Origin: an uncultured bacterium
GTDB taxonomy: Bacteria; Latescibacterota; MWCZ01; CAZVGZ01
Reading direction: 5' to 3'
DNA length: 64,000 bases
Assembly (NCBI GenBank): GCA_964627605.1
Contig: CAZVGZ010000001.1
Span: 47,325-111,324 of the forward strand
The notes under the pieces were generated by a model. That model was not told the origin of the DNA and ran no database searches. It saw nothing but the letters and a program-made list of their open reading frames with translations. A program made the translations under genes and the position numbers. How positions within the stretch are numbered: the first letter of the stretch is position 1; each line of letters starts with the position of its first letter. This document shows, one piece after another, positions 15,702 through 51,253 of the stretch.

Positions 15702-15799
15702 TTTTGGCTTTTTTTCTGGTGCGCCGCCCTGTGTCCAACAGCCCACCATAACATCCGTCACCCTAGAAAAAGATGTTCCAACCCACCCCTGTAATCCGA

Positions 15800-16207
15800 C
15801 TATCCGGTACTCCGCACGGATTCGGTGGCTATGAGAAATCTCTCCCACCCAGCGCTTCTGGCGAGGTCCATCACATCAACTACCGCCTCGAGCGGAAGAC
15901 GGCGATCGGCTCTCAAAACAATGATCTGATTTGGGTCTACGAGCCTCTGCCTAAGCTCCTGAATCAGCATCGGGCGGGTGAAGGACTCGTCATTGAGATA
16001 TATTGTTTGGTCGAACGCAACCGACAAGACGATGGATCTCTCCGAACTGATATCCCCGGCCACCGATTCTGGGAGTCGGACTTTGATGCCCAACTGAAGG
16101 AAAAAAGTGGACGACAGCAGAAAAAACACCAGCAGAAGGAACACGATGTCCGTCAGGGAGATCGCTGCGAACCCGGTAAGCAGCGGCTGGTTGGTGCGTA
16201 GCTTCAC
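15800..16207 (-). CDS. exbD: Biopolymer transport protein ExbD/TolR
   Basis: GTG start at 16207 overlaps the exbB stop (GTGA). The product VKLRTNQPLLTGFAAISLTDIVFLLLVFFLL... matches the ExbD N-terminal TM segment and periplasmic domain. About 136 aa. Confidence 0.75.
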   Translation of the reverse strand: MKLRTNQPLLTGFAAISLTDIVFLLLVFFLLSSTFFLQLGIKVRLPESVAGDISSERSIVLSVAFDQTIYLNDESFTRPMLIQELRQRLVDPNQIIVLRADRRLPLEAVVDVMDLARSAGWERFLIATESVRSTG

Positions 16208-16827
16208 GAAGACGACCCGCTGTCGGTGAGTATGGGGATGACCGCTCCCACTGCGGACTCCAAGTCGTTCGAGAACCGTTGGACCCGACTCACAAGATAG
16301 TTGTACGCCACCGTCGCCAAAATTCCGACAGACAGTCCAAACGCCGTGGTGACCATCGCCTCCCATATGCCACCTGCCAGTATCTTCGCTGTGACGTTCC
16401 CGATGACATACTCTATATCCTGGAAAGCTCGGATCATACCGGTCACGGTGCCCAAAAAACCGATGAGCGGTGCCACACCAGATATCGTTGCCAACACTCC
16501 GAGCTTGGCCTCAAGGGTGTAGGCAGCGCGGTTGCCCTCGTTTTCCACCGCCTCTTTTATCGTGTCGCGGTCGCGGTCTCGAACGCTGACCGCAGCCAAG
16601 ATCACCCCAGCGACCGGATCGTCCTCTACCTCCAAAATATGTTGGGCATCTTCAGGTCGCCCGCTTTTAAGAGCCTCAATCGCCTGCCCTACAGTCGAAT
16701 CGCCACTCGCCCTCAGCCTCGTATACGCCCAAGCCCTGTCTATCGTCACCCATATCGCAGTTGCTAGGCAGACGGCGATGGGGATCATGAGCCAGCCGCC
16801 CTTTGTCAGCATTGCCCACACTGTCAC
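16204..16827 (-). CDS. exbB: MotA/TolQ/ExbB proton-channel family protein
   Basis: 207 aa with 3 TM helices and the conserved ExbB C-terminal region (LATISGVAPLIGFLGTVTGMIRAF...GGIWEAMVTTAFGLSVGILATVAYNYL). Confidence 0.8.
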   Translation of the reverse strand: MTVWAMLTKGGWLMIPIAVCLATAIWVTIDRAWAYTRLRASGDSTVGQAIEALKSGRPEDAQHILEVEDDPVAGVILAAVSVRDRDRDTIKEAVENEGNRAAYTLEAKLGVLATISGVAPLIGFLGTVTGMIRAFQDIEYVIGNVTAKILAGGIWEAMVTTAFGLSVGILATVAYNYLVSRVQRFSNDLESAVGAVIPILTDSGSSS

Positions 16828-16852
16828 GTTGATGCTCCTTGTGTCATGATGT

Positions 16853-18568
16853 CTACCACTCCCTGCCGACGCCGAGAGCCAGTGTTAGGCCTGGTTCGAC
16901 AAACCCTTCCCACCGCTCGTAACGAGTATGGAAGATATTATACAACCAGAGCCGACCATAGAGGCCATGCCGCATGGGATGCTGGGCACCGATATCCATT
17001 ACCGCGTAGCTGCCCATCTTCACTCGTTTGCCCTGGGAATCTGCGTGGGGTCGGCGACCAATCCACGTCAGACGAGGCATCAGCCTTAGGTTCTCCCACA
17101 AGTCCATACTTGAGGAGACTTCGTGGTGGAAGTCAGGCACGTATGAAACTCCAGACCGTTCTTGGTAGGCTGACCAGAAGACCCTCAGCTTGCTTGCTAT
17201 GGACACCTTTGGTCCGACTCGATGTTGAATCGTAAGATATCCGGTGCGGATCGACACGTTGTCTTCATCATAGGTCAACTCGAAATCGGGCGTCGCGGCC
17301 CTGTCAGAGACCCCAGCCGTCGATCTATCCAACGCCGGAACAGCCCAGGGCTTGTCCCACACAGGGTAGTTCCTGATGAGGTTGAAGCGGAAGCCTGCGG
17401 TGATATGCCGTCCCTCGCCGCGCTGTGCGTCCACCCTGATGTCCAAGTCCGCCCTGTGGATAATCGGTTTGAGTGGTGTGTCGATGAAAAGAAACGGGTT
17501 GTCCCGGTAGGCTTCCCACAGGCCATATCGCTCAACACGCCCGCCTCCCCCGAATCGCGCCGTGAGCTTTAGCCACGACGTAACTCTCGCCCACGCATAT
17601 GCTTGAGCATACGGTTTTCTTATAGAGTCAGCGTCTGACGTAGCATCGAACGGGTTGACGCTGAAAAGTGTTACCCCCAACCCTCCGCCGTACCTTTCCT
17701 CCGGCCGGGTGAGCGCTTCGGCTCCAACGCTGGCTATCGTGGTGACACCTCCAGAGCTCTGGCCTCTCGATAGCGATGTGCGGTCGTAGCTCGCCTTGCC
17801 ACGGACGTAGAACCGCCGCCCGGCACGTTCTCCGTAGCCCTCAATAAGAACGCCGTTTTCTGTTCCACCACCGACCGGCTCCAGAGAGTCTTTGATGTTC
17901 CTACGGTCTATCTCAATCGAACCGTGCAGCTCGGTATCATCGACAGCACCGTCGCCTGCTATTTTGACAGCGATCCGGTTGAACGATCTCTCTCTATCAT
18001 CGCTCAGACTCCACACCCCGTTCATCCCCTCAATCAGCTTGAAACCGACAGCGCCAGCGGTGCGGTAGGGAAGCCGCCTGCCTGCGTCGATTGAAGCCAC
18101 GACCTTTCGGTGGGACGCTCCATCGCGATGCCCCGGGCCACCGCGTAGGCCAAATGATCCTGCAAGCTGCCACCCAGACCTCTCAGCGCGGCCACCGGCT
18201 TCAAGGGCCACGTTGCCTTGGTGGTTGATTAGCCCAGCGGCGTCAGCGGCGAAATCGCGCCCTGCTCGAACGATCCTGGGCAAAGCTATTTTGCCCCCAA
18301 CCTGCGGTAGCACCTCTAGACCTCTCATAGATGGTCGGTGGAACTCGCGGGACTGCGGCAGGGCGTAGCCGTAGGCCGATTCCAGCTTGTTTCCTTCGGT
18401 CTGAAGCTCCACCGCGCCCTGGCCGGTGATCACCAGCGAATCGGGCATGTCGAGGCGCATTCGCTGATCGGTGGGGTCGCTCTGTTGGGCCTGGATGTGT
18501 GGCGCATATATCAGAACCTGCCACACGAGAACCAGCGTCCATCTACCGCATGTTTTCAAGTCGCTCAC
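16853..18568 (-). CDS. Outer-membrane beta-barrel protein (short TonB-dependent-receptor-like)
   Basis: 571 aa. Signal peptide (WTLVLVWQVLIYAPHIQAQQ), a TonB-box-like DSLVITG near the N-terminus, Gly/aromatic-rich amphipathic beta-strands and a C-terminal aromatic residue (…LALGVGREW). At 571 aa it is shorter than typical TonB-dependent receptors. Confidence 0.55.
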   Translation of the reverse strand: MSDLKTCGRWTLVLVWQVLIYAPHIQAQQSDPTDQRMRLDMPDSLVITGQGAVELQTEGNKLESAYGYALPQSREFHRPSMRGLEVLPQVGGKIALPRIVRAGRDFAADAAGLINHQGNVALEAGGRAERSGWQLAGSFGLRGGPGHRDGASHRKVVASIDAGRRLPYRTAGAVGFKLIEGMNGVWSLSDDRERSFNRIAVKIAGDGAVDDTELHGSIEIDRRNIKDSLEPVGGGTENGVLIEGYGERAGRRFYVRGKASYDRTSLSRGQSSGGVTTIASVGAEALTRPEERYGGGLGVTLFSVNPFDATSDADSIRKPYAQAYAWARVTSWLKLTARFGGGGRVERYGLWEAYRDNPFLFIDTPLKPIIHRADLDIRVDAQRGEGRHITAGFRFNLIRNYPVWDKPWAVPALDRSTAGVSDRAATPDFELTYDEDNVSIRTGYLTIQHRVGPKVSIASKLRVFWSAYQERSGVSYVPDFHHEVSSSMDLWENLRLMPRLTWIGRRPHADSQGKRVKMGSYAVMDIGAQHPMRHGLYGRLWLYNIFHTRYERWEGFVEPGLTLALGVGREW

Positions 18569-21566
18569 GCGCCTCTACCCCCAATTCGTCGTCTTCGTGA
18601 GCGCGCATGACTTCGGTAAACAGGGTTTCAGCGCGGGACAGGTTGCCCATTCGCCTGTACACCTCACCGGCACCTAATCTGCCTCTGGCTGCCCAATGCT
18701 CGAAACTGTCGTATACGAGCGCGACTTTGAGGTAGGCATCTAACGCGCGGCCCTGGTCGCCCTGGCGTACAGAAATCTCTCCAAGGAGAAACTGTGCTTC
18801 CGCCGCGATCTCGTCGGCTCTTTCAGATATTACCGATTCAGCCTCACGGCTTGCGTCGTCATGTCGCCCGGACTCCATTATAAGCCTCACCAGCGCTATT
18901 CGGGCCGTCCCCCCGGAAAGACCTGTTCCACCAAGGCCAGCAGCCTCTCTGAACAGCGCTTCTGCCGTCTCAGAGTTGCCTGCGCTGCCATAAATGCGGC
19001 CCACTCTGATAAGGACGGCTGCACGCTTGGGGTGGGTCGGGAATTTTTTATGGTATCTGTCATATGCCGTGAAAGCTCCCACGGTGTCGCTCAGTGTCAG
19101 GTAGACCTCGCCAATCTGTTCCTGGGCGTCGGCAGCGATCTCCTGGGTCGAGTTTGCGACCTCAGCGAAAAGTGCGATCGCCGCATCGGTCCTGCCCAAC
19201 TGTACGAGACTTTTGGCCTCCCAGAACCTTGGTGATGATGGCAGCGGCGCGCTGGGAAAGTCTACCCAGACGCGGTGATACTCTACGGCGGCCTCGTCAT
19301 ACCTCTGGCCCTGGTAGAAAAGATCCGCACGCCTCAGTAGTAGCTGCGCCGACACCGGGCTTGTCGGGTTGTCGGTCACAAATCGGTCGGTCCGAGCTAT
19401 TGCCCCTTCCAAGTCGTTGAGCTGGATATAGGCCCACCAGATGCTTTTGATCGCATCGGGAACTTGGCGGACGGTGGGCCACCGGCGGAGCATCTCTTCA
19501 TACGCGTCGATCCCTTGGCGGTACTTGCCTTGGTTGTAGTACGCCTCTCCCATACCGAACTGCGCTTCTGGCGCTTTCGGGCTGCGAGGATATCTCACAA
19601 CAACGGCTCTAAAAGCACCAAGCGCCTGTTCGTACTCGTCGCGCTTAAAGTGCGCCCAGCCGATCATGAACTGCGCTTCGTCAACCTGTTTGGCATCTGG
19701 AAAGCGTTTGACGACCTCCCTATACGCCGCTACAGCCTCTGGAGCACGGTCGAGCCAGAGCAAACACTGCCCAACCTGGAACTGCGCACGGGCTGCCGCT
19801 TCGCCGGTCTCAACCGACACTACGAGCGCCCTGTACGATTCCAAAGCACGTTCGTAGTCGGCCTGGTTGAAATAGGCGTCACCGATGCGCAGGAGTGCGT
19901 CGTACTGGATTTCCGGTGATTGAGTCTTTGTCCGCGCCGATTCGAACTCGGTGATGGCTTCATTGAAGCGTCCTTGCTTGAACGCCGACCAGCCCATGCC
20001 ATAGTGCGCCTGCCCGGCGCGGTCGCTGTCAAGGTGGTTGGTTGTGACACGTTGATAGCTCTTGGAAGCTTCGCCAAAACTGCCCAGTGCGTAGAGAGCC
20101 TCTCCGATGAGAAAATGGGCGTCCGCTTCAAGAGCGTGTCCCGGCCACTCAAGTGTGACGCGGCGAAAGTCGCGCAGCGCCTCGTCGTATTCTGTGCGCT
20201 GGTAGAAGCACCAGCCCCTTTGAAACAGCGCGTTGGGCAGCATCGGCGAGATGCTGTCGGCTTTGACCACCACCGTGCTGTATGCGCCGATGGCATCAAG
20301 CAACCTCTGCTGTGCCAACCGGGTCTCCCCGAGCATGAAAAACCCACGCATCACCAACGGCCATTCCCCATATCGCGATGTCAAAATCTCAAAAGCGTCC
20401 GCAGCGGTTTCAAGCGCATTGCGATCGAACGCCAATGCGCCCCATTCAAACGCCGCGTCATCGGCAAGTGTGTCGGTGGGGAAATCGTCTACGAAGCTGC
20501 GCATCGCCTCTTCCGCCGCTTGGCGAAGCCCGATCTCTTTGTGCAGCATCGCCCTTCGAAAAACGGCCTGCGGTACCACAGGAGCATTCGGCCATCTGGA
20601 GGCAACCTGCCCAAAGGCGTCGATCGCGGAAGTCAAGTCTTTCTGCTCTGTGTAGGTCCAACCAACGCCGTATTGGGCTTGCGGGGCCAGAGGGGAGATA
20701 GGATGCTGAGAGACCACCTGTGTGTACGATGCTCGAGCGCGGTCAAACTCGCCCAACGCGAACTGACTTTCGCCCACCAGGTAGGATCCTTTTGCTCTCA
20801 CCGAGGGGTCCTCGACCACCTCTAAAACCTGTTCGAGCGCCCTGATCGCGTCGGAGTAGGCCGCCTGTTCAAACAGGCACTCGCCAAGCCCGAAACGGCT
20901 GTGGTCCACCAAAGAGTGCTCTGGGAACCTGGCGATTACCCCCTGATACGCCTCGGCGGCCTGTGTACAGTTTTGCCTCTTCTGCTGGACCCATCCAAGC
21001 GAATAGAGCGCGTAAGGCACCACATCGCCCTCACCGGTGGCGGCGATGGAGTAGTTGGATGTGGCATCTTCATGCTGTTCCAACGCCAGTTGCGCCTCGC
21101 CCAACCAGTACCTCGCCTCCCATATCAGGTCGCTATCGGGGTATTCGTCGGTGAGCTGGCCAAACGCCTGAGCGGCTTCTTGGGGTTGCTGGACACAATA
21201 GTGGCTCTGGCCGATCCTGTAGAGCGCATCGTCGTCCAGGGGTGACGCGCCATATTCGATGCGGAACTGGCCGAATCTGGTCAGGGCGGCTCTGTACCTC
21301 TCCCGGTGGAAATCGCACTCAGCAAGAAGAAAAGTGACGCTGGGTAGTAGCGGGCTGGAAGGGTGACGCCGCTGAAAATCTTTTAGTGCGGTCTCTGCGA
21401 GGTCGTAGTCGCCAGCTTCATGGAGGCGCTTGGCATATTTGTAATCTCGGGCTTCAACGCTGACGGGTTGGGCGTTGGAGGTCGCCCATCCTGACAACAG
21501 CAAAACCGATATCCACGCCATTCTTCGACGCAGGGTCATAGCGGCCAGGTTGGGAGTTGCCGACAT
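18543..21566 (-). CDS. Large secreted tetratricopeptide-repeat (TPR) protein
   Basis: 1007 aa. N-terminal signal peptide (MAWISVLLLSGWATSNAQP), then more than 20 TPR-like repeats (…A.Y..G…Y..A…F…P…). It is the first gene of the TonB-system operon. Confidence 0.8.
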   Translation of the reverse strand: MSATPNLAAMTLRRRMAWISVLLLSGWATSNAQPVSVEARDYKYAKRLHEAGDYDLAETALKDFQRRHPSSPLLPSVTFLLAECDFHRERYRAALTRFGQFRIEYGASPLDDDALYRIGQSHYCVQQPQEAAQAFGQLTDEYPDSDLIWEARYWLGEAQLALEQHEDATSNYSIAATGEGDVVPYALYSLGWVQQKRQNCTQAAEAYQGVIARFPEHSLVDHSRFGLGECLFEQAAYSDAIRALEQVLEVVEDPSVRAKGSYLVGESQFALGEFDRARASYTQVVSQHPISPLAPQAQYGVGWTYTEQKDLTSAIDAFGQVASRWPNAPVVPQAVFRRAMLHKEIGLRQAAEEAMRSFVDDFPTDTLADDAAFEWGALAFDRNALETAADAFEILTSRYGEWPLVMRGFFMLGETRLAQQRLLDAIGAYSTVVVKADSISPMLPNALFQRGWCFYQRTEYDEALRDFRRVTLEWPGHALEADAHFLIGEALYALGSFGEASKSYQRVTTNHLDSDRAGQAHYGMGWSAFKQGRFNEAITEFESARTKTQSPEIQYDALLRIGDAYFNQADYERALESYRALVVSVETGEAAARAQFQVGQCLLWLDRAPEAVAAYREVVKRFPDAKQVDEAQFMIGWAHFKRDEYEQALGAFRAVVVRYPRSPKAPEAQFGMGEAYYNQGKYRQGIDAYEEMLRRWPTVRQVPDAIKSIWWAYIQLNDLEGAIARTDRFVTDNPTSPVSAQLLLRRADLFYQGQRYDEAAVEYHRVWVDFPSAPLPSSPRFWEAKSLVQLGRTDAAIALFAEVANSTQEIAADAQEQIGEVYLTLSDTVGAFTAYDRYHKKFPTHPKRAAVLIRVGRIYGSAGNSETAEALFREAAGLGGTGLSGGTARIALVRLIMESGRHDDASREAESVISERADEIAAEAQFLLGEISVRQGDQGRALDAYLKVALVYDSFEHWAARGRLGAGEVYRRMGNLSRAETLFTEVMRAHEDDELGVEARERLENMR

Positions 21567-21892: not shown

Positions 21893-23083
21893 TTGAGGCA
21901 CACGATGGCAGACACCGCTGACGCTCGTCTTGAGTTTATCGCTGACCTGAAACGAAGCGCCGATTGGAGCGATTGGCGTTGGCAACTGCGCAACAGGATA
22001 TCGTCGGTAGAAAAACTTTCAAAATACATCAGTCTGTCGGCTGAAGATCAGGCAGGTGTTAAGAGTGCTGGCGACGCCTTTCGCTGGACTATTACCCCTT
22101 ACTACGCCTCTTTGATGGATCAGGACGATCCGGCCTGTCCGCTGAGGCGGCAGCAGATCCCTTCACTGAGCGAGATGTCTGATGACGCCGGTGTCTCCGA
22201 TCCGCTAGGAGAGCAACGAAACTCGCCGGTGAAATCCATAGTCCACGTCTATCCTGACCGCGTAGCTCTCAAAGTGACAAACGTGTGTCCGACGTACTGC
22301 CGATACTGTTTCAGGGAGTATTTCGTCGGCGATCAACAAGCGCATCCACCTGCCGATCAGGTTGATGCAGCCATCGACTACGTGAGGCAACACACTGAGA
22401 TAAGAGATGTGCTGCTCACCGGGGGCGATCCCGCACTGCTTAGTGATGAGAGGCTTGAGGATATTTTTCGGAGGCTCAGAGCCATCTCTCATGTGGAGAT
22501 CATCCGTCTGGGTACAAGGACACCGTGTACTCTTCCTCAACGGATAACCGAGGGTTTCGCCAGCATGCTAGCCGCCTACCATCCGGTCTGGCTGAATACA
22601 CATTTCAATCATCCAGATGAGGTCACACCAGAAGCGACGCAGGCGTGCGATAGGCTGACTCGCGCAGGCGTTCCTGTGGGAAATCAATCGGTGCTTCTTA
22701 AAGGGATCAACGACGATCTTGATGTGATGCGCGATCTAGTTCATGCACTGGTGAAGATTCGCGTCCGGCCATATTACATCTTTCAGTGCCAGCTACTCAA
22801 GGGCACCGCCCATTTTCGCACTCCGATTGAACAGGGGATGTCAATCGTCGAACAACTCTGCGGTCACACTACAGGTTTTGCGGTTCCTCAATACATCCTC
22901 GATACCCCCCATGGCAAAGTGCCCATATCGTCCAACTATGTCGCTGGGCGCGATGGGGAGTTGGTCGTCCTCAAAACATGGGGCGGGCGTCTGTGGAAGG
23001 AGCCCAACGAGCAAGATGGAAATCAGGACTTGACACTACCGCAGATCAAAGCACCAGATGCCGAAACCATGGACACTTTTTAG
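21893..23083 (+). CDS. kamA: KamA/EpmB-family lysine 2,3-aminomutase-like radical SAM enzyme
   Basis: 396 aa. Radical SAM cluster motif CPTYCRYC (CxxxCxxC) and the KamA-family N-terminal region (YASLMDQDDPACPLRRQQIP). There is no C-terminal Zn Cys cluster. Confidence 0.85.
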   Translation: MRHTMADTADARLEFIADLKRSADWSDWRWQLRNRISSVEKLSKYISLSAEDQAGVKSAGDAFRWTITPYYASLMDQDDPACPLRRQQIPSLSEMSDDAGVSDPLGEQRNSPVKSIVHVYPDRVALKVTNVCPTYCRYCFREYFVGDQQAHPPADQVDAAIDYVRQHTEIRDVLLTGGDPALLSDERLEDIFRRLRAISHVEIIRLGTRTPCTLPQRITEGFASMLAAYHPVWLNTHFNHPDEVTPEATQACDRLTRAGVPVGNQSVLLKGINDDLDVMRDLVHALVKIRVRPYYIFQCQLLKGTAHFRTPIEQGMSIVEQLCGHTTGFAVPQYILDTPHGKVPISSNYVAGRDGELVVLKTWGGRLWKEPNEQDGNQDLTLPQIKAPDAETMDTF

Positions 23084-23178: not shown

Positions 23179-26100
23179 TCAGGCGGCGGGTGCATCAACA
23201 TACCTATCTCTTGTCTCCGGGGTCAGGGCGCGCCAGACGAGGAACTGACGCCTGATCTCATTGAGAAGCGCCCGGCATCCGCGTCGCCACGAATCTCTTC
23301 CGCCGCTGTGCCTTAGCATCAGAATGTCCACAGCCAACATCCCCTCTTCGTCTTCGCGTGTACGCAGTGTCAGCTTCTGGCTAATTCCCAAATCAAACGG
23401 GGCTAGCCATACATCCACATTCAGAACATGCGGCATTTCCGTGTCTGGATCGGTCGACAGGGCGGCTGATTGCGTCGAAAAAGTCTCACCGATGGAACGG
23501 TCCTCGTACATCTCGAAGTACTCGCGCAGGAATGGCATTACACCGTCGGCATCGCGCCTGCTCAACATGAATGGCAACGGAGTGCGCAGGAGATCGCCCT
23601 CTGGCTCAGGCGGGGTCCACGAACGTTCAATCCCAGGCACGCACATCTGCGATGCGAGTTTTGCTGGCCAGATCGAAGATGACATGACCACGGCCATAAC
23701 CAGTACAATTGTCCCCACCGCCGATACTGATGAGTAGTTGAGTGTCAATCCCGGGAGGATGCCTGTCGCTGTGATGATTGTCGCGGCCACCTGCCCCAGC
23801 AGGTAGCCCAGTATGGCACCAATAGTCGAATAGACCGCCGCCTCAGCAACAAAAAGTCCGGCTACATGGGCAGGCGCCAACCCGATTGCGTTCAACACTC
23901 CTGTCTGTGTAGTTCGTTCGTATACTGCACCGAGCATCGTGTTGGTGACTATCAGCACCACTAGCACGATGGGAATAACGACTTCCCGCTCTCCCCGTAC
24001 GCTGGTCAACCCAACCGAGCGCATCACATATCGCGCTCCGTCTATCCCGGCGTAGATATTGATCCCTAAAGCTGGCATCCACTCATCAGCGGCCTGCGTA
24101 GTCGCTTGGCTGTCTGGCAACCTGACAGCCACCGACCTGACTGTTCCCCCCAACCTCAGCGCCCACACCGCAGGAACCACAACCAGTTCATCGCCCTTGA
24201 GGTGAACATAGATTGATGCCGACCCTGAACGCGACATCCCCACTGACGTTCTCTGCTCCACGGTCTGCTGCGCATCCGGTTCGAGAGGGGTGATCGGTTC
24301 TCCGTTCAGGTCCTGGACATCTGTGAATGCGGCAGAATCGATGATTCCCACCACGCGGAAATGACCGCCCAAAGTTGTGACCTGCGCCCTACCGACGTCT
24401 TGAGGCCCAATCTCAAGGCGGTCTGCCAACAGCTCGGACAGAATGCAACTCTGTTCATCGGGTTCATTGAACCAGCGTCCAGTGATGAGTGCTCGAGGGG
24501 GTACTGTAAGTTGGCTTTCGGTTGGCGACAGGCCCAACAAGCCTTGAATTACTGCCGACTTCGTTGGGCCGTCAGTGCGGCGCAAGACCATCGTGCTTCG
24601 TGCCCCCGCCGATGCTCGTGCCGGGCGCCATACCCTTTTGGCGGTGGTCGCACCTGGGGTGTAGCGAAACCGGTCCTCTATCCGCCGGGCTACTGGCGAC
24701 TCCAAGATGGCCCAATTGGGCAGACGAACGAGGAGGCCGTTGTAGGGGGCGTCCCTCCCGATCTCAATCTTGTTGAAACGAAGCGTCGAGCGGATAGATG
24801 TGAAGGAGAGAACAACGAATGTCAGGATCACTATTGTTCCGGCAGTCAGCCCTGTCCTCATCGGGCGGCGGCGCATCTGTCCGATCCCAAGCCTTGTGGC
24901 GGTGAAAAACACTCCTAATCGGCTCACGTCTGCGGTATGGTTCGTGACCTGTTCGCTGAGCGACTGGTGGAGTCGATGATTGAATTTTGAGACAGCGATG
25001 CCTGTCACAGCAAGGCTGAGCGCGAGGATGATGAACGAGAGGAGAAGAACCGACGGTGAGATAGCCAACGAGAATGCCGGGTGAGCCCACCTCAGGACCA
25101 GGAATGCCAGAGTAAACACGAAGGTCGCACCCAATATGCGCCCTCTTGTCCCTCTAGCGTCGATCAGAAGTCTCTCCACCATGTATGAAAACGGCAGCAA
25201 CATCGCCAGAAAGAACACCACACCGTGGACCACATCGTCGGTTGTTCCCCTCACATCGGTGTAGGCCCTCGACGTGTATCCCCACGCAGCGCGGGATGCT
25301 ACGATAAACCTCCCATACTCCCGGTTCTCAAGCGTCTCTCTGGCTTGTTCCAGAAGCTCTCCTGACCCGTAGTGCATCGATTGGAGCCGCGGATTGTCTA
25401 TCCCGTGGGACGCTAACAGGTCCAGCCGAATGCCGTTGAGCCTGTGGGTATCCGATCCAATCTGATAAGCCGATCTAGTTATCCTGCCGTTTCTGTCGGT
25501 GTCGAAACCGACCCCTGTTGGGTGTGCGTTGTCCGTATTTAGCGCTACAAGACGGCGGCCAAGGCCCAACTCTCCAAGGGTCATCACGAGTTTGAGGCGA
25601 ACGCCAGGTTGACCGAACGCAACTGCGATCGGCTCTACATCTGAGCCGAGATAGGTCTTGCGGCCACCGAATCCGAATATGCCTGCCTCCAGCGGTGTCA
25701 GTGGCAGGCTCGCACCAAACTTGACCGGTTCAGCCTCCCGGCCTGCCTCGACGACCATCATGTTGTCTAGGGTCAGCAGATACCGCGGGTCAACGATGTC
25801 GTACAGAGTTGCTGGCTGCGCTCGGAAGGCGACCACGGTCACTTTCATGTGACGACGATCCATCCTGACGCCTATCGGGTTACGCAGATCACCGTCGATC
25901 CCTAGGTCCGGGACATACTCTATAGCACCGGTTGTCGGATTGATCCCGTAGGCTTCAAAAACGAACGGCTTGTCGCTTCTGTAGATCCGGTCGTACTCCA
26001 TGCCAGGCACAACGAAACGGCCATCGCTGTCAGTGACGGTGATAAACTCCCCACGCACCGCAGACACGGATTTCATTTTCATCCGAGGGCGGACGATCGC

Positions 26101-27681
26101 CTCCACTATAGGTGTATTTGGGAACGGGCCTTCGGTGGGTTCAAATCGAACCACGCGACCCCTTACCACGCCAAGATGGTTTTTAGCCCGTTCTGTTGGA
26201 AAATCTGAGCGGGGGCCGTCAAAGGTTCTGATGAGATAGACTAGAAATCGCACCTGCTCGACCAGATTGGGGAGATTCAGCCTGTCAGGCGTGTCCAAGG
26301 GCGTGTCCATGTACTGACGGTCGTCGTTGCCGGTTACCGCAGTAACGGCGAGCCACCCATTTAGGGCGAAAGGCGCGGCATCTGTAGGAATCGCCTCAGC
26401 AGCAGTTGATCCAAGATACTGTCTCTCCTGCGACCTGCGGATTACTCCGCTTACTATCTTGAGAGTATCCAGATGGGCGAGCCTTTCATACGCCTGCGCT
26501 GTCGCCACCAGTTCTTCGGCATCATCGCCGAACTGAGTGGAGCGATGGTCGTTGGCGAGCACCGAATAGGGTGGGCCACCTTTCTGGAACCCGATGTGCT
26601 TGTCAGCCGTGGTGAGGTCTAATCCGACAAACGTCACCGGATTCAACCGCGCCACATCGTCTAACGTCAGCGTGCCCGCAGGAAGTTGCGACGGTACGAT
26701 CGTGTCGAACTCGCCCTCCCACAAACTGTCGAGGTGGGCTACGACATATCTCGCGGCGTTCTGCGCTTGAAAATGGCCTGGCATCGCCATCAGAATCACC
26801 GGGCGAGCGACGGGCCTGTGGGTCAGTGCGCGGACCATCTCCATCATACCAGCCATCCCGCAGGCGGCTTGTGCCCCTGGAGATAGGGCAGGAATTACAG
26901 ATGGTGCATCGTAGTACGCCGACAACACTATCGGCTGATCGGCTAGGTTGTCGTCGTGCCCTTCTATCAAACCGAGCAGCACGTCCGCTCGGACTCTTTG
27001 CCATTTCATGTCAGCCAAGATGTGGGCTCGGGGTGCCCGATCAGTCAAAAGCCTGAGCTGCTGAGCGGTTTCAGGCGGCGCGTAGAATCGGGGAAGGTCG
27101 GCGACGTTGGTTAGGAAAGTGTTGGACGCCTCTTTGCGATGGACATCATGTGGTGCCAGGAAAACCACCGCGTTCGCACCTAGATCAAACGCATCGGGCC
27201 ATCTCAATTGCCCAGGAAAATCAACGAGCGCTATCGATCCTTCGACAGGGAGTCCATCGAAATCGCCGTAGGACCCTGATTTGCCGTAGATCAGTGCGCC
27301 GGACAACCCTTTAGGCGGTGTCTGCGAGGTTCGCACAGCGTTAGGCCATACTGAGTGCAGCGGCCATTTCTTCCCGTCAACCTCAATTGACGCTCCCAGA
27401 TCCACTGGCATGACACTCGGCGCTGCCCAACGACCCAATCGGCCAACTCCCATTCTTCGCCATTCGCTCTCAATCCAATCTGCTACGGCCACCGCACCAG
27501 GGTAGCCTGTCGTCCGCGACCTGTGGGAGGTGAGCGCGGTGATCGTTCGCATAAGGCTGGTGGTATCCACTCTACTCGCCAGCTTGAAAAAAGGCTCGTC
27601 ATTTTCGGCCCTGGTCGTCGCCAGACTCAGCATCACAACGCCAACCACCAGCCTGAACGACGCAGGCGTAGACAACGTCAC
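23179..27681 (-). CDS. Giant fusion protein: N-terminal M28-like (PA-domain) peptidase domain, carboxypeptidase-regulatory-like Ig domain, and C-terminal MacB/FtsX-type ABC-transporter permease domains
   Basis: 1500 aa. Signal peptide at the N-terminus. The M28/transferrin-receptor-like region is (…GYPGAVAVADWIESEW…ALVDFPG…VVFLAPHD…). The C-terminal part has multiple TM helices with FtsX-like segments (VVIPIVLVVLIVTNTMLGAVYERTTQTGVLNAIGLAPAHVAGLFVAEAAVYSTIGAILGYLLGQ). No ABC ATPase gene is adjacent. Confidence 0.65.
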   Translation of the reverse strand: MTLSTPASFRLVVGVVMLSLATTRAENDEPFFKLASRVDTTSLMRTITALTSHRSRTTGYPGAVAVADWIESEWRRMGVGRLGRWAAPSVMPVDLGASIEVDGKKWPLHSVWPNAVRTSQTPPKGLSGALIYGKSGSYGDFDGLPVEGSIALVDFPGQLRWPDAFDLGANAVVFLAPHDVHRKEASNTFLTNVADLPRFYAPPETAQQLRLLTDRAPRAHILADMKWQRVRADVLLGLIEGHDDNLADQPIVLSAYYDAPSVIPALSPGAQAACGMAGMMEMVRALTHRPVARPVILMAMPGHFQAQNAARYVVAHLDSLWEGEFDTIVPSQLPAGTLTLDDVARLNPVTFVGLDLTTADKHIGFQKGGPPYSVLANDHRSTQFGDDAEELVATAQAYERLAHLDTLKIVSGVIRRSQERQYLGSTAAEAIPTDAAPFALNGWLAVTAVTGNDDRQYMDTPLDTPDRLNLPNLVEQVRFLVYLIRTFDGPRSDFPTERAKNHLGVVRGRVVRFEPTEGPFPNTPIVEAIVRPRMKMKSVSAVRGEFITVTDSDGRFVVPGMEYDRIYRSDKPFVFEAYGINPTTGAIEYVPDLGIDGDLRNPIGVRMDRRHMKVTVVAFRAQPATLYDIVDPRYLLTLDNMMVVEAGREAEPVKFGASLPLTPLEAGIFGFGGRKTYLGSDVEPIAVAFGQPGVRLKLVMTLGELGLGRRLVALNTDNAHPTGVGFDTDRNGRITRSAYQIGSDTHRLNGIRLDLLASHGIDNPRLQSMHYGSGELLEQARETLENREYGRFIVASRAAWGYTSRAYTDVRGTTDDVVHGVVFFLAMLLPFSYMVERLLIDARGTRGRILGATFVFTLAFLVLRWAHPAFSLAISPSVLLLSFIILALSLAVTGIAVSKFNHRLHQSLSEQVTNHTADVSRLGVFFTATRLGIGQMRRRPMRTGLTAGTIVILTFVVLSFTSIRSTLRFNKIEIGRDAPYNGLLVRLPNWAILESPVARRIEDRFRYTPGATTAKRVWRPARASAGARSTMVLRRTDGPTKSAVIQGLLGLSPTESQLTVPPRALITGRWFNEPDEQSCILSELLADRLEIGPQDVGRAQVTTLGGHFRVVGIIDSAAFTDVQDLNGEPITPLEPDAQQTVEQRTSVGMSRSGSASIYVHLKGDELVVVPAVWALRLGGTVRSVAVRLPDSQATTQAADEWMPALGINIYAGIDGARYVMRSVGLTSVRGEREVVIPIVLVVLIVTNTMLGAVYERTTQTGVLNAIGLAPAHVAGLFVAEAAVYSTIGAILGYLLGQVAATIITATGILPGLTLNYSSVSAVGTIVLVMAVVMSSSIWPAKLASQMCVPGIERSWTPPEPEGDLLRTPLPFMLSRRDADGVMPFLREYFEMYEDRSIGETFSTQSAALSTDPDTEMPHVLNVDVWLAPFDLGISQKLTLRTREDEEGMLAVDILMLRHSGGRDSWRRGCRALLNEIRRQFLVWRALTPETRDRYVDAPAA

Positions 27682-27888
27682 AAAATTCTCTTCCGCTGTT
27701 CGGGAGACAGTCTACCGTAGACACCAACATTCGCCAACAATAGACTCCGTGTCACGGGGTGTCAGCTTGTGCTTTGTGGCTCTACGTGTCTATCTTGCTT
27801 GGAGCCACGCCAACTCCCGCTCTCGCAAGAGCACCTCAAGATCGTCCCACAGCATCTTGGCTTCCAAAGAAAAGGTCCGCACGAATAG

Positions 27889-29088
27889 ATGACACGCCAA
27901 ACCCGGCTGGCCACTCTCACCCTGTTCGTCGCACTCCTGGCCGGATATTTTGGCGTCCTGCCACTATTCGGCCAGTCGCTTCAAACATACTTTGACATCA
28001 CCCTGAGCCAGTATGGCGTGCTGCTGAGTATCGGACTTGTGCCGTCTGCATTGGCAGCTTTGGCAGCTGGTCAGATGGTTGACCGGTTGGGCCCTCGGCG
28101 CACGCTTCGCGTGGGTTTCGCGGGAACAGCAGCGGCTCTTGTGATCGCGGCGTTGGGTTGGAACTGGAAAGTAATGCTGGCGGCGACGATGATCGCCGCG
28201 TGCTTCGCGTCGGCGATTTTTTTGGCCGTGCAGGCCTATTTAGCGCAGACGTTTCCAGGTAGGCGACGCAGAGTTATATCACTTCATTTGGTGTCACTGT
28301 CGCTGTGGGGTGTGGTGCTGCCGTTGTGGGTCGAACTGTTGACCGACCTGGAAGCGGGGTCACCTAACCTAAGCTTTTCGACAGTTCTCCACGCTCCGTT
28401 TGGAGCGATTGCGGTGTTGATGGGTTTGGCGGCGCTGCTATATCGACCGTCATCTATACCCGCCGTGGCCGCAAAAATCCCTGATGTGGGTCCAACCGAG
28501 AACTCCCGGCTGTTTGGAGGTGGAGTATTCTGGTTGGTGGCGATGATGGTTATGCACGGTACTTGCGATAGCGCAGCCCACATGTGGATGGCGCGGGTTT
28601 GGGATAGCGAACCCTTCGCCGCATCTCCGATTAGATCAGGTGTTGTTCTGGCGGCCTATAGCGCCGCGTATGCCGGTGGTCGTTCGCTCCTCAGTATTCT
28701 TCCTGAACGGTCTGGGCGCAAAACTCTACTGATCGCTCCAGGCATAGTAGGTGGAGGGTTGTTTGCCTTGGGGATGTTGCTCGAATCACCAACAGCCGCT
28801 GCCGTGGGCTATGTAGCTGGCGCAGCGATCTGGTCAGTGGAGTTTCCAGTAGCTGCGGCGATGATCGCCGAGGTGGCTCCGAGACGGATGGGGCGTCTGC
28901 TAGCGATAGCTCAGGCTGGTGAAGGGTTTGGAGCTTTCGCAGTGCTGAACGGTATGGGGTTGGTTGGGCAGTCGCTCCCAGGTGGTTCACTGTGGACGAT
29001 TCTGTTGATACCCGCCGTCGGATTCCCGGTGGTTGGCCTGTGTGGAGGATGGTGGTTGTTGAGACATGGAAACCGTAGAGTTGATTAG
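27889..29088 (+). CDS. Major facilitator superfamily (MFS) transporter
   Basis: 399 aa with about 12 TM helices and an MFS-like loop motif (GQMVDRLGPRRTLRVGF). Confidence 0.75.
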   Translation: MTRQTRLATLTLFVALLAGYFGVLPLFGQSLQTYFDITLSQYGVLLSIGLVPSALAALAAGQMVDRLGPRRTLRVGFAGTAAALVIAALGWNWKVMLAATMIAACFASAIFLAVQAYLAQTFPGRRRRVISLHLVSLSLWGVVLPLWVELLTDLEAGSPNLSFSTVLHAPFGAIAVLMGLAALLYRPSSIPAVAAKIPDVGPTENSRLFGGGVFWLVAMMVMHGTCDSAAHMWMARVWDSEPFAASPIRSGVVLAAYSAAYAGGRSLLSILPERSGRKTLLIAPGIVGGGLFALGMLLESPTAAAVGYVAGAAIWSVEFPVAAAMIAEVAPRRMGRLLAIAQAGEGFGAFAVLNGMGLVGQSLPGGSLWTILLIPAVGFPVVGLCGGWWLLRHGNRRVD

Positions 29089-33765: not shown

Positions 33766-34126
33766 GCTTTGTTCCAGCCAGATAGGGTGGGGAGTGCTGT
33801 TGAGACAACGCAGTCGAACGTAGTAATTTATGTCGCCCCTGGTGTCGGGTCAATCAAAGTGCAGCCACGGCAAACGTGACAGACTCCGATGTCGCTCACC
33901 GTATCACTAGTAGAAGGCGAATTGATCGGGCTCGCAACATCTCCATCGACTACAGAGCTGGCGCGACTACGAAACAGCGGTTGGCCAACTGTGATCTCCG
34001 AACCCGCGTCTTGCAGCCCTGGCAGTCACTGGCTGCGATGGGACATAGGGCGTACGGAGCACATCACGCACCTATATTTTCTTGGTTGCCCACATACTTA
34101 CTCGACCAGAAAAAGGAAACTCATTG

Positions 34127-35794
34127 ATGTTGTCGGACTTGGACATTGCACAGCAAGCAACGCTCGCACCTGTAGAAGAGTGCGCCTCGAAACTCAACCT
34201 TGGCGTTGATGATCTGGAGTTTTACGGCCCATACAAAGCCAAGATATCTCAGCAGACAGTCGCCCGTGCGCAGTCGAACCCCACTGGCAAACTTGTCTTG
34301 GTCACCGCCATGAACCCGACCCCAGCCGGTGAGGGCAAAACGACTGTCGCCATCGGTCTGGCGCAAGCGCTGGACCATCTCGACAAAAAGACCGTCGTGG
34401 CTCTAAGGGAGCCGTCACTTGGGCCGGTTTTTGGCCGTAAAGGCGGCGCGACTGGTGGTGGTTACTCCCAGGTGCTGCCCATGGAGGACATCAATCTTCA
34501 TTTCACCGGCGACCTTCACGCCGTCACCGCCGCGCAAGATCTGTTGGTGTCGATGTTGGACAACCATCTTCATCACGGAAACGATCTGGGTATAGACTCG
34601 AGGACGGTCACACTCAAACGAGCGATGGACATCAACGACCGTGCGCTTAGAAACATCAAGGTTGGTTTGGGTGGTACCGCGAACGGCGTGCCCCGCGAGA
34701 CCGGCTTTGAGATCACCGCAGCGTCAGAAGTCATGGCGTGTGTCGCACTTGCAAGAGACATCTCTGACCTCAAGGAGCGACTCAGCAGGATCAGGGTCGC
34801 ATACACCACATCGGGTCGCCCTGTCGCCGCAAAAGACCTGGATGCCACCGGCGGGATGGCTGCGCTGCTCAAAGATGCTGTCAAACCCAACATCGTTCAG
34901 ACGATTGAGGGCACTCCAGCGTTGGTGCATATGGGGCCGTTCGGGAATGTGTCCACCGGCTGCAACAGCATTATCGCCACCAAACTTGGGATGCGGCTGG
35001 CTGACTATACCGTCACAGAGGCGGGCTTTGGCTCGGATCTAGGTGGGCAGAAGTTTATGGACATCATCTGCCGTGCTGGCAACTTTATGCCTGACGCTAT
35101 TGTGCTCGCCGCAACGGTCCGAGCGCTCAAGATGCACGGTGGCTGTGCCCAGCAGAAGCTTCATATCACCGAATGTGATCGCGTAGAACAGGGATTGCCA
35201 AACCTTCTTCAACACATCGACCACGTTAGTCAGTATGGCATCCCGGTGGTGGTAGCCATCAACCGTTTTACCAACGATAGCGACGAGGAGTTGGAGATCA
35301 TTCGAAAGGCTTGCGCCGAGATGGGCAAGCCGGTCGCTGAGGCGACTATCTGGGCTGACGGCGGCAAGGGCGGCGTCGAGCTGGCGAATGAGGTCCTCGC
35401 AGTCTGCGACCAGCCCTCGGAAGGCAAATATCTTTACAACATCGATCTACCGCTGCGCGAGAAGATAGAAACGATCTGTAAGAGAGTCTACGGTGCTGAC
35501 GGTGCCAATTTCTCAGCCAAGGCCGCAAAGAAGATCGACGCGGTGGAAGCTGAGGGGCTTGGTCGGATGCCGGTCTGCATCGCAAAGACGCAGGATTCGC
35601 TTTCCGACAAAAAGACTCTTCTCGGGCGACCAAAAGGGTTTACTGTACAGATAGCGGATGTTCGTGCTGCGACAGGGGCTGGCTATCTGATCGCGTATGC
35701 AGGCAGCATTATGACTATGTTCGGCTTTAGCAAAAGTCCTGCTGCCGTCAAAATAGATCTGAACGACGACGGCGAGATTGTAGGGCTGTTCTAG
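34127..35794 (+). CDS. fhs: Formate--tetrahydrofolate ligase
   Basis: ATG at 34127 preceded by an aaggaa SD. Product MLSDLDIAQQATLAPVEECASKLNLGVDDLEFYGPYKAKIS… with the P-loop TPAGEGKTT. Full-length FTHFS of about 555 aa. Confidence 0.9.
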   Translation: MLSDLDIAQQATLAPVEECASKLNLGVDDLEFYGPYKAKISQQTVARAQSNPTGKLVLVTAMNPTPAGEGKTTVAIGLAQALDHLDKKTVVALREPSLGPVFGRKGGATGGGYSQVLPMEDINLHFTGDLHAVTAAQDLLVSMLDNHLHHGNDLGIDSRTVTLKRAMDINDRALRNIKVGLGGTANGVPRETGFEITAASEVMACVALARDISDLKERLSRIRVAYTTSGRPVAAKDLDATGGMAALLKDAVKPNIVQTIEGTPALVHMGPFGNVSTGCNSIIATKLGMRLADYTVTEAGFGSDLGGQKFMDIICRAGNFMPDAIVLAATVRALKMHGGCAQQKLHITECDRVEQGLPNLLQHIDHVSQYGIPVVVAINRFTNDSDEELEIIRKACAEMGKPVAEATIWADGGKGGVELANEVLAVCDQPSEGKYLYNIDLPLREKIETICKRVYGADGANFSAKAAKKIDAVEAEGLGRMPVCIAKTQDSLSDKKTLLGRPKGFTVQIADVRAATGAGYLIAYAGSIMTMFGFSKSPAAVKIDLNDDGEIVGLF

Positions 35795-38641: not shown

Positions 38642-38728
38642 TAACAATGTTCGTGCCCAGGCCGGATTGTGGAGGTTTCCCGCTGGCTGGAAGGGCGTAA
38701 GCGCGCGCACGGCAAGGAGGTAACTCGC

Positions 38729-40539: not shown

Positions 40540-40743
40540 GTGACAGATTGATCGCTTACATAAGATCGCTTGTGTGCCAGTTGGAACCCCATCAACCGCA
40601 GAACACTAGTCGAAGGGCTCGATGGGTTAGGCGGCCACCTCTACCTCGGAATTACGAGAGGTCGCCGCTGCATAGTCGGCTGCAGGCTGGACATGAGGCA
40701 CATCAACCACTAGCTTTTGGTCGATCGATTTATAAAGAAAGCC

Positions 40744-49264: not shown

Positions 49265-51253
49265 ATGCCCTGGACCACGACGCTGCCCTATTCGTACGCA
49301 ATCGATTACGGACAGAAACATCTTGGCAACACCGAGTATCTGAAGCAGATCGAGGAGGGCAGGCCGCAACTGCTCCACGTTTTTCAGGACACTCCGCTCA
49401 ATTCATGGACCGGTAACTCGATACATACCGGTGGTGAGGAGTTTCGTCGGATAACCGCCGATGAGGTGCCTGCACATGTCGATGCGATTAAGAAGTTCGT
49501 CCAAGACGCGCACGAATCTGGTGCCGCCAAACTGATTCCCTACATCTGCACGATGATAATGGTTGGAAACGCTGAGACTCGCGACGGCTTCTGGAACCTC
49601 TATGACAACTGGGAAGATTTCGAGCATTTGGGCATCGGGCCCAAACCGGAAGACGACCCGATTGAATGGCTCCAAAAAGGCGCAACACCTCTGGGTAATC
49701 CACGCCTCAACCACCACGAACCATCAATCCATCACCCAGGGTGGCGGCAGTTCCTGAGGGCATGCGCCAATCTTGTTGCAGAGTGCGGATACGACGGCGC
49801 GTTTCTGGACGTGAACTCGCTTGCGAGCTATCTCGAATGCGACCGCATCGTGTTTGCCGAATATCTCGCCGACCGCTTTTCACCCAATGAGCTGAGTGGG
49901 CTACTGAACTTCTCATCCGTTGACGATGTGGTATTGGGAGAGCCCGGTGACGGGCTATTATGGTTTGAGACTGCGCGGTTCAGATCGTGCGCAATGGGCA
50001 AGCTTTTTGAGGAACTGAGAGACATCGGGCGTCAGCATGTCGAGGATTTCTTCGTCATCGTCAACAACTCGCCGATGAGCGCTCTCGAAGGGTTTTGGGA
50101 TCGTCGTAGGTATGGCCTCGGCGTCGGCCCACTGCACGAATACACTGCGGCAGTGATGTTCGAAGAGATGCAGCAGGCTGGTCGGTTTGGGATGGACTAC
50201 ATCAACGACAACATTCTTCAGTTCAAGTACTCGCTCGCCCACGGTGCCAAAGGGGTGACACTTCTCTACTTCGCCGGGCATACCGACGCGTGCAATCTGG
50301 CGAACGCTGAGGCCGCTTCAGGCGGCGGCGGAGCGTTTGTCCATCCAGGATTCGTCGGAATCCCTGAGATGCGGGCGTGGGGCGACTGGTTCACCGACCA
50401 CGCCGCTATGTACGACGGCAAGGAAGCGGTCCACGATGTCGGCGTGCTGTTCTTCGCCGAGCAGATGTACTGGGAGAACCACGACCACATCGACGCGGTC
50501 TACAGAATTAGGATGTCGTTGTCCGACAACCATATCCTTTTCAATTTTCTTGTCGAACCGCATTTCACACTTGAAGCGCTGAAGACTTTTGAGGTCGTGA
50601 TCGTCCCTGATGTGAGCCACATGAGTCAGGATCAGATTGATGTCCTGGTGGCGTACGCTGAAGGGGGCGGAAAAGTTCTCATAGTCGGCGAATGTGGATT
50701 GTTTGACGACCGCGGAATCGCCCACGCCACACCGCTGTCCGATCTGCTGGCGAAGCATTCAGACAACGTAACCTTTTGCGACAAGCTGGATTCTGCGGTT
50801 CCCGCTCGCGGCCAGGAGATATACGACTTGCCCCATGGCGAACTCAATACATTCGAATATTTCCCAGAGATGACCGACCGGGTTGCGTCGATAGAAGAGG
50901 CGCAAGCTGCGCGAAACCATCCGCTGATCGCTGTTCTTGATGAGATGGCAGGCAGGCGGCTGTCCTGTCTGAACGACGATGCGCCCTACACTTTGCGGGT
51001 GGACGCCTACAAAGATCCAGACGACGAAACCAAAACGCTAGTCCATCTGGTGAACTACGATTTATTGGTGACGGAGCGAGGCAAAACCGAGCCGCTGATC
51101 CCAGCGACTGACGTTCTTGTCAAGATACCGGCCAAGTCCGCTCGTATCTGGATGTCGGGGGGCACCGAGGGCGAGCCGCTCAACGCTGGTGTCGACGGCG
51201 TTCAAATCCCAGCGGTAGACTGCTACGCTATCGTCGAGATGACCAACGCGTAG
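49265..51253 (+). CDS. Hypothetical protein, possibly glycoside-hydrolase-like
   Basis: 662-aa uninterrupted ORF with an aromatic/acidic-rich sequence. I do not recognise the family with confidence. Confidence 0.5.
   Translation: MPWTTTLPYSYAIDYGQKHLGNTEYLKQIEEGRPQLLHVFQDTPLNSWTGNSIHTGGEEFRRITADEVPAHVDAIKKFVQDAHESGAAKLIPYICTMIMVGNAETRDGFWNLYDNWEDFEHLGIGPKPEDDPIEWLQKGATPLGNPRLNHHEPSIHHPGWRQFLRACANLVAECGYDGAFLDVNSLASYLECDRIVFAEYLADRFSPNELSGLLNFSSVDDVVLGEPGDGLLWFETARFRSCAMGKLFEELRDIGRQHVEDFFVIVNNSPMSALEGFWDRRRYGLGVGPLHEYTAAVMFEEMQQAGRFGMDYINDNILQFKYSLAHGAKGVTLLYFAGHTDACNLANAEAASGGGGAFVHPGFVGIPEMRAWGDWFTDHAAMYDGKEAVHDVGVLFFAEQMYWENHDHIDAVYRIRMSLSDNHILFNFLVEPHFTLEALKTFEVVIVPDVSHMSQDQIDVLVAYAEGGGKVLIVGECGLFDDRGIAHATPLSDLLAKHSDNVTFCDKLDSAVPARGQEIYDLPHGELNTFEYFPEMTDRVASIEEAQAARNHPLIAVLDEMAGRRLSCLNDDAPYTLRVDAYKDPDDETKTLVHLVNYDLLVTERGKTEPLIPATDVLVKIPAKSARIWMSGGTEGEPLNAGVDGVQIPAVDCYAIVEMTNA

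Follow-up and report, generated by a model that had tools for sequence, protein, structure and literature searches.

What is a peptidase-like domain doing on a permease of the MacB/FtsX type that has no ATPase gene beside it? The question is raised by one gene in a stretch of 64,000 nucleotides (the whole of it is called the window hereafter) from an uncultured bacterium of the Latescibacterota, positions 47,325 to 111,324 of contig CAZVGZ010000001.1 in assembly GCA_964627605.1. The gene lies at 23179..27681 of the window on the minus strand, with its stop codon at 23179-23181, and codes for a protein of 1500 residues (the window protein) in which a PA/M28-like ectodomain is joined to a type VII ABC (ATP-binding cassette) permease. 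Type VII ABC systems (MacAB, LolCDE, FtsEX, YbbAP, BceAB, HrtBA) serve as the model of how ATP drives mechanical work in the envelope of bacteria, and to our knowledge every known example uses its periplasmic domain differently. By the fold of its predicted models and by its domain matches, the window protein is a type VII ABC permease. Our analysis indicates that it is probably an intact, divergent membrane subunit with the MacB/LolCE/FtsX fold, which would act by mechanotransmission with an ATPase encoded in trans and would carry its ectodomain for binding or as a scaffold.

The reading frame is a single one of 1500 codons with no internal stops. It starts with GTG, and the GGAAGAG just 5' of the start is a plausible ribosome-binding site. 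The identical 1500-residue product, with the same flanks, was called on several independent metagenome assemblies. There are two variants of the protein, each with one residue different, and several samples yielded either the same sequence or a variant of this kind. Homologues of 1400-1900 residues are collinear with the window protein over 97-100% of the length at 31-42% identity, which excludes a missed stop or a frameshift. That this is one long gene and not two, as had been proposed from the sequence alone, was therefore confirmed. The highest identity of any relative found is 41-42%, and the only labels that public databases give to members of this family are 'FtsX-like permease family protein' and 'M28 family peptidase'.

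The layout of the protein was drawn from hydrophobicity, from conservation in the family and from two predicted structure models. The model of the N-terminal half has a predicted local distance difference test score (pLDDT) of 89.0 with a predicted template modelling score (pTM) of 0.90, and that of the C-terminal half a pLDDT of 89.6. The permease is found in the latter. Residues 1231-1344 (23650..23991, on the minus strand like all parts of the gene given here) are the FtsX domain, with the transmembrane (TM) helices TM2-TM4 placed within residues 1234-1340 and with the coupling-helix motif YERTTQTG, where the family consensus is YERxxEIG. The Pfam family FtsX (PF02687) matched residues 1236-1344 with an E-value of 7e-12 (45.9 bits against a gathering cut-off of 25.5), in the C-terminal membrane region where such a match had been expected, and the sequence matches of this domain in the PDB were LolF, YtrF, MacB and LolC. 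Between TM1 and TM2, residues 964-1230 (23992..24792) form a MacB-type periplasmic core domain, which gave a match above the cut-off to MacB_PCD (PF12704, E 2.4e-7) when it was scanned alone. The segment in front (residues 901-963, 24793..24981), delimited by hydrophobicity and conservation, consists of a cytoplasmic linker with the conserved motif MRRRxxRTxLT (901-944) and of TM1 (945-963), and the family profile aligned it to the pre-TM1 region of MacB. The structural matches of the C-terminal model were MacB, LolC/E, YtrF, HrtB, YbbP and FtsX. Four TM helices with an extracytoplasmic core between TM1 and TM2 are what distinguishes a type VII ABC permease, and the window protein has both. 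After TM4 comes a conserved C-terminal cytoplasmic alpha+beta domain (residues 1345-1500, 23182..23649) with a helix-grip, KA1 or Bet v 1-like fold, which belongs to no Pfam family.

The four-TM module and the core domain between TM1 and TM2 are shared with MacB, LolC-LolE, YtrF and HrtB; the family also has a coupling helix of the ER..EIG type, from which the window protein deviates at two positions. In contrast to MacB and LolCE, the window protein adds about 940 residues in front of this module and a cytoplasmic domain of about 155 residues behind it, and its scores with the NCBIfam equivalog models were far under the cut-offs (16.6 versus 966 for MacB and 14 versus 362 for LolCE). The FtsX equivalog models behaved in the same way, with 9.1 bits against a cut-off of 250 for FtsX_actino and no match at E <= 1 for the others, so that the protein fails every named equivalog tested (MacB, LolCE, FtsX). 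There is also a group of MacB-like 'orphan' FtsX permeases, the ADOP family (TIGR03434), whose genes commonly have no ATPase gene next to them. These have two FtsX domains and no M28-like ectodomain, whereas the window protein has a single FtsX domain and is therefore not an ADOP; the ADOP model gave no match to it either.

The part in front of the permease begins with a signal peptide or signal anchor (residues 1-24, 27610..27681), whose hydrophobic peak at residues 3-21 is followed by TTRA/EN. Residues 25-500 (26182..27609) make up an extracytoplasmic PA plus M28-fold domain with a non-canonical set of active-site residues (Y256, D258, Q271, H303, F304, D355, D459), identified by Foldseek, the family profile and a partial Pfam match. 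A beta-rich extracytoplasmic region follows (residues 501-735, 25477..26181), in which secondary structure assignment of the model with DSSP gave strands over 503-713, mostly with pLDDT >90, and to which no Pfam family matched at E <= 5. Long stalk helices (residues 736-815, 25237..25476; 737-758, 764-785 and 789-827 in the model) lead into the membrane, where three extra TM helices (residues 816-900, 24982..25236), helical in the model and with hydrophobicity peaks at 817-838, 849-867 and 879-897, bear the family-conserved E836-R837-L838 and H867-P868-x-F870. MacB, LolC and FtsX do not have these helices. The extracytoplasmic region ahead of them amounts to about 790 residues.

The fusion of a peptidase-fold ectodomain to a MacB/FtsX-type permease, as described by the sequence-only reading, is thus supported by PF02687, by MacB_PCD and by structure models on both halves. 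Two details of that description have to be changed. It had taken the M28-like domain for an enlarged MacB periplasmic domain; since this domain has a three-TM anchor of its own and the normal periplasmic domain is intact, it is instead a separate N-terminal ectodomain. The Ig-like or CarboxypepD_reg domain that had been suggested found no support from hidden Markov models, as residues 500-815 gave no such match at E <= 5 and the model is only beta-rich at about 503-735.

The relationship of the ectodomain to M28 peptidases is clear at the level of fold. Peptidase_M28 (PF04389) scored 24.6 bits against a cut-off of 21.3, yet the match covered profile positions 10-63 of 193 only. Foldseek with the N-terminal half found the aminopeptidase 2EK8 (E 3e-21), then BSAP (6HC6/6HC7), PaAP (8AC*), and after them transferrin receptor 1 (TfR1) and GCPII, over a range of E-values from 1e-21 to 1e-15. 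The family profile against the PDB gave 2EK8 at E 4e-26, including the PA insert, BSAP at 5e-22 and the Aeromonas aminopeptidase at 1e-11, followed by nicalin (5e-9), TfR1 (2e-7) and nicastrin (4e-4). The best structural and profile matches, PA insert included, are therefore the PA-domain M28 aminopeptidases Aneurinibacillus AM-1 (2EK8), Bacillus subtilis YwaD/BSAP and Pseudomonas PaAP. These are soluble di-zinc enzymes with the residue set H, D, E-E, D, H, while the window protein has Y256, Q271, H303-F304, D355 and D459 at the same places.

We mapped these residues with the profile-versus-PDB and family alignments and counted them in 203 family proteins of at least 1200 residues. The His of the HxD motif is replaced by Y256 (Y in 131, H in 25 and F in 18 members), and the bridging Asp by Q271 (E in 136, D in 32, Q in 7). 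At the catalytic Glu the window protein has H303 (H in 177 members, E in 1), and at the neighbouring ligand Glu it has F304 (F in 98, with E outside the eight commonest residues). The ligand Asp is retained as D355 (D in 179), and the second ligand His has become D459 (D in 151, with H outside the eight commonest residues). D258 is kept in 201 of the 203. The replacement of H/D/E/E/D/H by Y/E/H/F/D/D is thus family-wide, with the window protein departing from it by the Q at the bridging position; its pattern YQHFDD is a minority state found in 4 of the 203. Not one of the 203 members has the canonical set of M28 ligands and catalytic residues. Of the five zinc ligands of M28 enzymes the window protein keeps only one, and its catalytic Glu is replaced as well; the proposal of a protease module, for which the zinc ligands were to be checked, is not supported by this comparison. 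Since the canonical di-zinc and catalytic residues are replaced across the family, a standard aminopeptidase is unlikely, and on the aligned residues the family is not one of standard di-zinc M28 aminopeptidases.

By analogy, we consider it more likely that the ectodomain binds a ligand or acts as a scaffold than that it is an enzyme, and its ligand would probably be a peptide or the terminus of a protein. The M28 fold is known in such roles from the transferrin receptor, nicastrin and nicalin, which have no catalytic function and act as receptors or as subunits of complexes in the membrane. Like the window protein, they are membrane-anchored M28(-PA) folds without the canonical site, and relatives of the window protein are linked to polytopic membrane proteins; unlike it, they are eukaryotic and single-pass and have no ABC module. 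The sequence relation to them is weaker than to the bacterial aminopeptidases, so that the likeness lies in how the fold is used and does not place the window protein in their family.

The family to which the protein belongs is large. We made an exhaustive search of a database clustered at 50% identity with residues 1-940, that is with the part without the FtsX module, and obtained 1784 cluster representatives with a limit of E <= 1e-3 and 894 with the stricter one of E <= 1e-30. The listed representatives had mostly 1400-1900 residues, and 120 of the 146 newly listed had at least 1300, indicating that the fusion is the rule in the family. A relative was present in the genomes of at least 598 species (one genome per species was scanned), and the best 80 of these belonged mainly to Latescibacterota, Armatimonadota, Omnitrophota and Gemmatimonadota. 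Further members were found in Planctomycetota, in Pseudodesulfovibrio and in one archaeon of the Hodarchaeales (Asgard). There are 38 family-invariant columns, spread over all regions of the protein, and the window protein keeps all 38. Our literature search found no paper that mentions DUF6785 or DUF6784, the domains of a partner protein described below, and none on a fusion of FtsX with M28. The family is large and uncharacterised, and the window gene is an ordinary though divergent member of it, special only as a pointer to the family. The archaeal relative (contig JBSWNS010000051.1) is shorter, with 1233 residues, and has the best-kept match to the M28 profile (positions 1-182 of 193). Its bridging position reads 'PGADE', and it has no recognisable partner genes within 8 kb. 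The archaeon could have acquired the gene horizontally, or the protein could represent an earlier state of the fusion.

Relatives of the gene are usually found in company. We surveyed the neighbourhoods by tblastn on fetched loci and took the main counts from the 44 loci in which each flank reaches at least 8 kb. Two polytopic membrane proteins are the commonest partners. One, called S here, has about 660 residues, is 40-48% identical across phyla and has no Pfam or NCBIfam match; the other, D, is a DUF6785/DUF6784 protein of about 650 residues. S stands directly downstream of the large gene on the same strand in 38 of the 70 loci with enough sequence. S or D was present within 10 kb of the large gene in 42 of the 44 loci, and only two had no partner at all. 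Neither S nor D has a sequence or profile match in the PDB, and their comparison with each other by hhalign gave a probability of 72% with one pair of alignments and 20% with another. A subset of loci also carries an ATPase of the LolD/MacB type (TIGR02211, 231 bits), a PqqD-family protein, a protein of about 300 residues, and a short FtsX of 205-223 residues which has four TM helices and no periplasmic domain.

The order of these genes varies with the lineage: short FtsX, ATPase and large gene, with gaps of a few bases, in Pseudodesulfovibrio; large gene, S, the ~300-residue protein, PqqD, short FtsX and ATPase in Armatimonadota; and ATPase, D, large gene and S in Latescibacterota. Between Pseudodesulfovibrio, Armatimonadota and other lineages the ATPases share 68-78% of their residues (68% between the first two), which indicates one dedicated orthologous group; the large proteins of Pseudodesulfovibrio and Armatimonadota have only about 30% identity to the window protein. 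As in MacB and LolC-LolE, the relatives therefore pair with a LolD/MacB-type ATPase, and some of them with a short FtsX as LolC does with LolE. In contrast to the MacB and Lol systems, no partner genes of the MacA/TolC or LolA type were seen. On one Latescibacterota chromosome the large gene is present twice, once (L081) beside ATPase, D and S and once (L082) beside D only. This is direct evidence that a genome with a complete cluster can also hold copies that have no ATPase nearby. A 208-residue reading frame upstream of the ATPase at L081 was considered as a short FtsX and discarded, as it has no hydrophobic segment. In the relatives' clusters (L004:4053-5954 on the minus strand, L006:14773-16314 on the plus strand) the PqqD-like protein was always paired with the ~300-residue protein, which has no Pfam match. 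The Pseudodesulfovibrio cluster has in addition a protein of 205 residues whose one hydrophobic segment is N-terminal, and a TatA gene is present at the Armatimonadota locus. These neighbours hint at a peptide or protein substrate handled by the system.

With these partners in mind, the working of the protein can be outlined by analogy with MacB, LolCDE, FtsEX and YbbAP. Two ATPase subunits of the LolD/MacB type would dock on the coupling helix between TM2 and TM3 of a dimer of the FtsX module, which may be a homodimer or, where the short FtsX is present, a heterodimer comparable to LolC with LolE. Binding and hydrolysis of ATP would shift the TM1/TM2 stalk helices and the periplasmic domain, and the motion would be relayed to the M28-like ectodomain tethered to the module and, where they are encoded, as for most relatives, to one or both of the polytopic partners S and D. 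In the source organism the ATPase would be supplied from elsewhere in the genome. An ATPase in trans had also been suggested by the sequence-only reading; the suggestion fits the ATPase found in the clusters of relatives from three phyla, while the 64 kb at hand contain no such gene. The closest precedents are FtsEX with EnvC, PcsB, RipC or CwlO and YbbAP with TesA, in which, as far as the cited records describe them, a MacB-fold engine acts by mechanotransmission, not by transmembrane transport, on an extracytoplasmic hydrolase (PMC7668044, PMC10694151, PMC12646458). In those systems the hydrolase, or the protein that activates it, is a polypeptide of its own on the periplasmic domain; here the hydrolase-fold domain is part of the permease polypeptide, with its own TM anchors. 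The hydrolase-fold domain of the window protein also differs in having the M28 fold and in the absence of the canonical catalytic residues.

Several observations weigh against this interpretation. A dedicated ATPase was found within 10 kb in only 11 of the 44 well-flanked loci, and for this reason the ATP dependence of the whole family is inferred. In the window itself there is no gene for an ABC ATPase, a short FtsX, S or D: the Pfam scan of the sizeable reading frames over the whole 64 kb gave no ABC_tran, no second FtsX and no DUF6785, and tblastn with the relatives' ATPases gave no match, so that the absence of an ATPase gene already noted for the flanks extends to the entire window. The window copy is also divergent. 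It keeps 119 of 134 highly conserved positions (89%), compared with 94-100% in most aligned members. The ER..EIG motif of the coupling helix is kept in about 190 of 203 members, and the window protein has E1255 and R1256 but deviates by E1259Q and I1260T, each found in only 3 of the 203. Judged from the residues, these changes and the 89% retention could be compatible with an altered or relaxed coupling; a loss of function is not implied. Finally, the replacement residues E271, H303, D355 and D459 are strongly conserved across the family, so that a new metal or catalytic centre is possible as well as a binding pocket, and a centre of this kind could make a role in binding only wrong.

Each of these points can be followed to a different explanation. 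If the conserved replacements are taken as a catalytic set, the ectodomain would be an active, non-canonical metallohydrolase, perhaps mononuclear, built on E/Q271, H303, D355 and D459 and gated by the ATP-driven MacB-type module, in other words a version of FtsEX with its hydrolase or of YbbAP-TesA fused in cis; this corresponds to the protease module proposed from the sequence alone. We regard this as unlikely, even though the substitutes at 271, 303, 355 and 459, together with D258, are conserved and not decayed in the counts given above. The control of hydrolases by type VII ABC systems is established, to the extent of the sources already cited. A His at the position of the general base is compatible with catalysis in the Aeromonas aminopeptidase E151H, which was published as 'functional' according to the reference list of PMC3426542 (Bzymek et al., 2005), and among the Aeromonas aminopeptidase entries the one that scored best with the family profile was 2ANP, the structure of that variant. 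However, essentially all members have lost the two His ligands and the Glu ligand of the di-zinc site, the bridging carboxylate is a Gln in the window protein, a pattern of those 4 in 203, and the Pfam M28 match spans only about a quarter of the profile.

If, on the other hand, the scarcity of ATPase genes is taken at face value (33 of the 44 well-flanked loci have no dedicated one nearby, and the window has none), the FtsX module might be a membrane scaffold or dimerisation unit that works without an ATPase, with the conserved cytoplasmic domain after TM4 in place of a nucleotide-binding domain. FtsX-type permeases without an adjacent ATPase gene are known, and the ADOP family owes the name 'orphan' to this. 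We find this explanation improbable: the whole family conserves the coupling-helix motif, in three phyla the large gene shares tight operons with a dedicated ATPase that is itself highly conserved, and the C-terminal domain is present also in members that have the ATPase, which shows that it is not a substitute for one. The divergence of the window copy could also mean that it is a decaying or redundant paralogue, still with an undisrupted frame after the loss of S and D. Both are indeed gone from the syntenic position, fewer highly conserved positions are kept than in most members, the substitutions at the bridging residue and at the coupling helix are rare, and the identity to any relative found is at most 41%. 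This is nevertheless very improbable for a frame open over 4.5 kb behind a plausible ribosome-binding site, with every family-invariant column kept, both halves of the protein modelled confidently, and the same sequence or one-residue variants present in several samples. Copies without S or without the ATPase occur in other genomes too (L082, L019 and L037). An intact type VII subunit with an ATPase in trans and an ectodomain for binding or scaffolding is for us the probable interpretation.

The surroundings of the gene in the window agree with what had been described. A KamA-like radical SAM gene (21893..23083, plus strand) is convergent with the large gene, and an MFS gene (27889..29088, plus strand) is divergent from it. 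The 207 bp between the large gene and the MFS gene (27682..27888) are, by their position between the two, the presumed promoter region of both, and on the minus strand they contain one sigma-70-like match, no more than expected by chance. Following the large gene, the order in the window is the opposite-strand kamA-like gene, a TPR gene, a 571-residue non-membrane protein, ExbB, ExbD and a 315-residue protein. In the two closest relatives examined, the large gene is followed by S and D, and in one of them (L091) then by TPR, ExbB, ExbD, ExbD and a TonB-domain gene; S and D are thus absent from the syntenic position in the window, where the closest relatives have both. Two reading frames were considered as diverged partners and set aside. 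That at 49265..51253 on the plus strand (662 residues, no Pfam match) is not similar to S and is not membrane-like, and that at 16853..18568 (571 residues) has no TM segment, begins like a signal peptide and did not match S or D; it is possibly an outer-membrane protein. The cluster at 14901-21566 on the minus strand, with a 1007-residue TPR protein, the 571-residue protein, ExbB/MotA, ExbD and the 315-residue protein with a single TM segment, looks like an energy-transducing system of the Ton/Tol type. A block of TPR, ExbB, ExbD and TonB after the large gene, S and D is found also in L091 and L030; because the linkage occurs in only these two of about 80 other loci, we took it as synteny of the lineage and not as part of the system.

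Other genes of the window concern the metabolism of the organism. There are four genes of the URO-D family (MtaA/CmuA-like) at 1066-2169, 35931-37073, 37165-38139 and 62050-63162, as well as a B12-binding protein (38669-39367), a B12-binding radical SAM protein (40717-42492) and a formate-tetrahydrofolate ligase (34082-35794), which suggests a corrinoid-dependent methyl-transfer metabolism in the source organism. A 902-residue protein (44154-46862, plus strand) with two FAD_binding_4 stretches and a single FAD-oxidase_C domain may be a fused or duplicated flavoprotein of the glycolate/lactate-oxidase type. The 179-residue reading frame at 51511-52050 (plus strand), with only partial matches to the profiles BD-FAE, Abhydrolase_3 and Peptidase_S9, may be a truncated esterase gene or the product of a mis-called start.

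For the family as a whole we put forward, tentatively, a wider possibility. There may be an undescribed envelope machine of which the large protein is the signature subunit, with S, D, the LolD-type ATPase, the short FtsX and the PqqD-like, peptide-binding protein as further components, in which the M28-fold ectodomain, driven by type VII ABC mechanotransmission, would bind or process an extracytoplasmic peptide or protein at a new conserved E-H-D-D site. Such a machine would be distributed over Armatimonadota, Latescibacterota, Gemmatimonadota, Omnitrophota, Planctomycetota, some Desulfobacterota and an Asgard archaeon. Its engine would be the familiar type VII one; not described so far are the fused ectodomain of the pseudo-peptidase kind, the three TM helices added to the module, the helix-grip domain in the cytoplasm and the conserved polytopic partners. 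The family would add a different type VII design, with a hydrolase-fold domain fused in cis, membrane anchors of its own, a conserved cytoplasmic domain and polytopic partners; it is abundant in several poorly studied phyla and provides a prokaryotic case of the M28 fold without the canonical zinc site.

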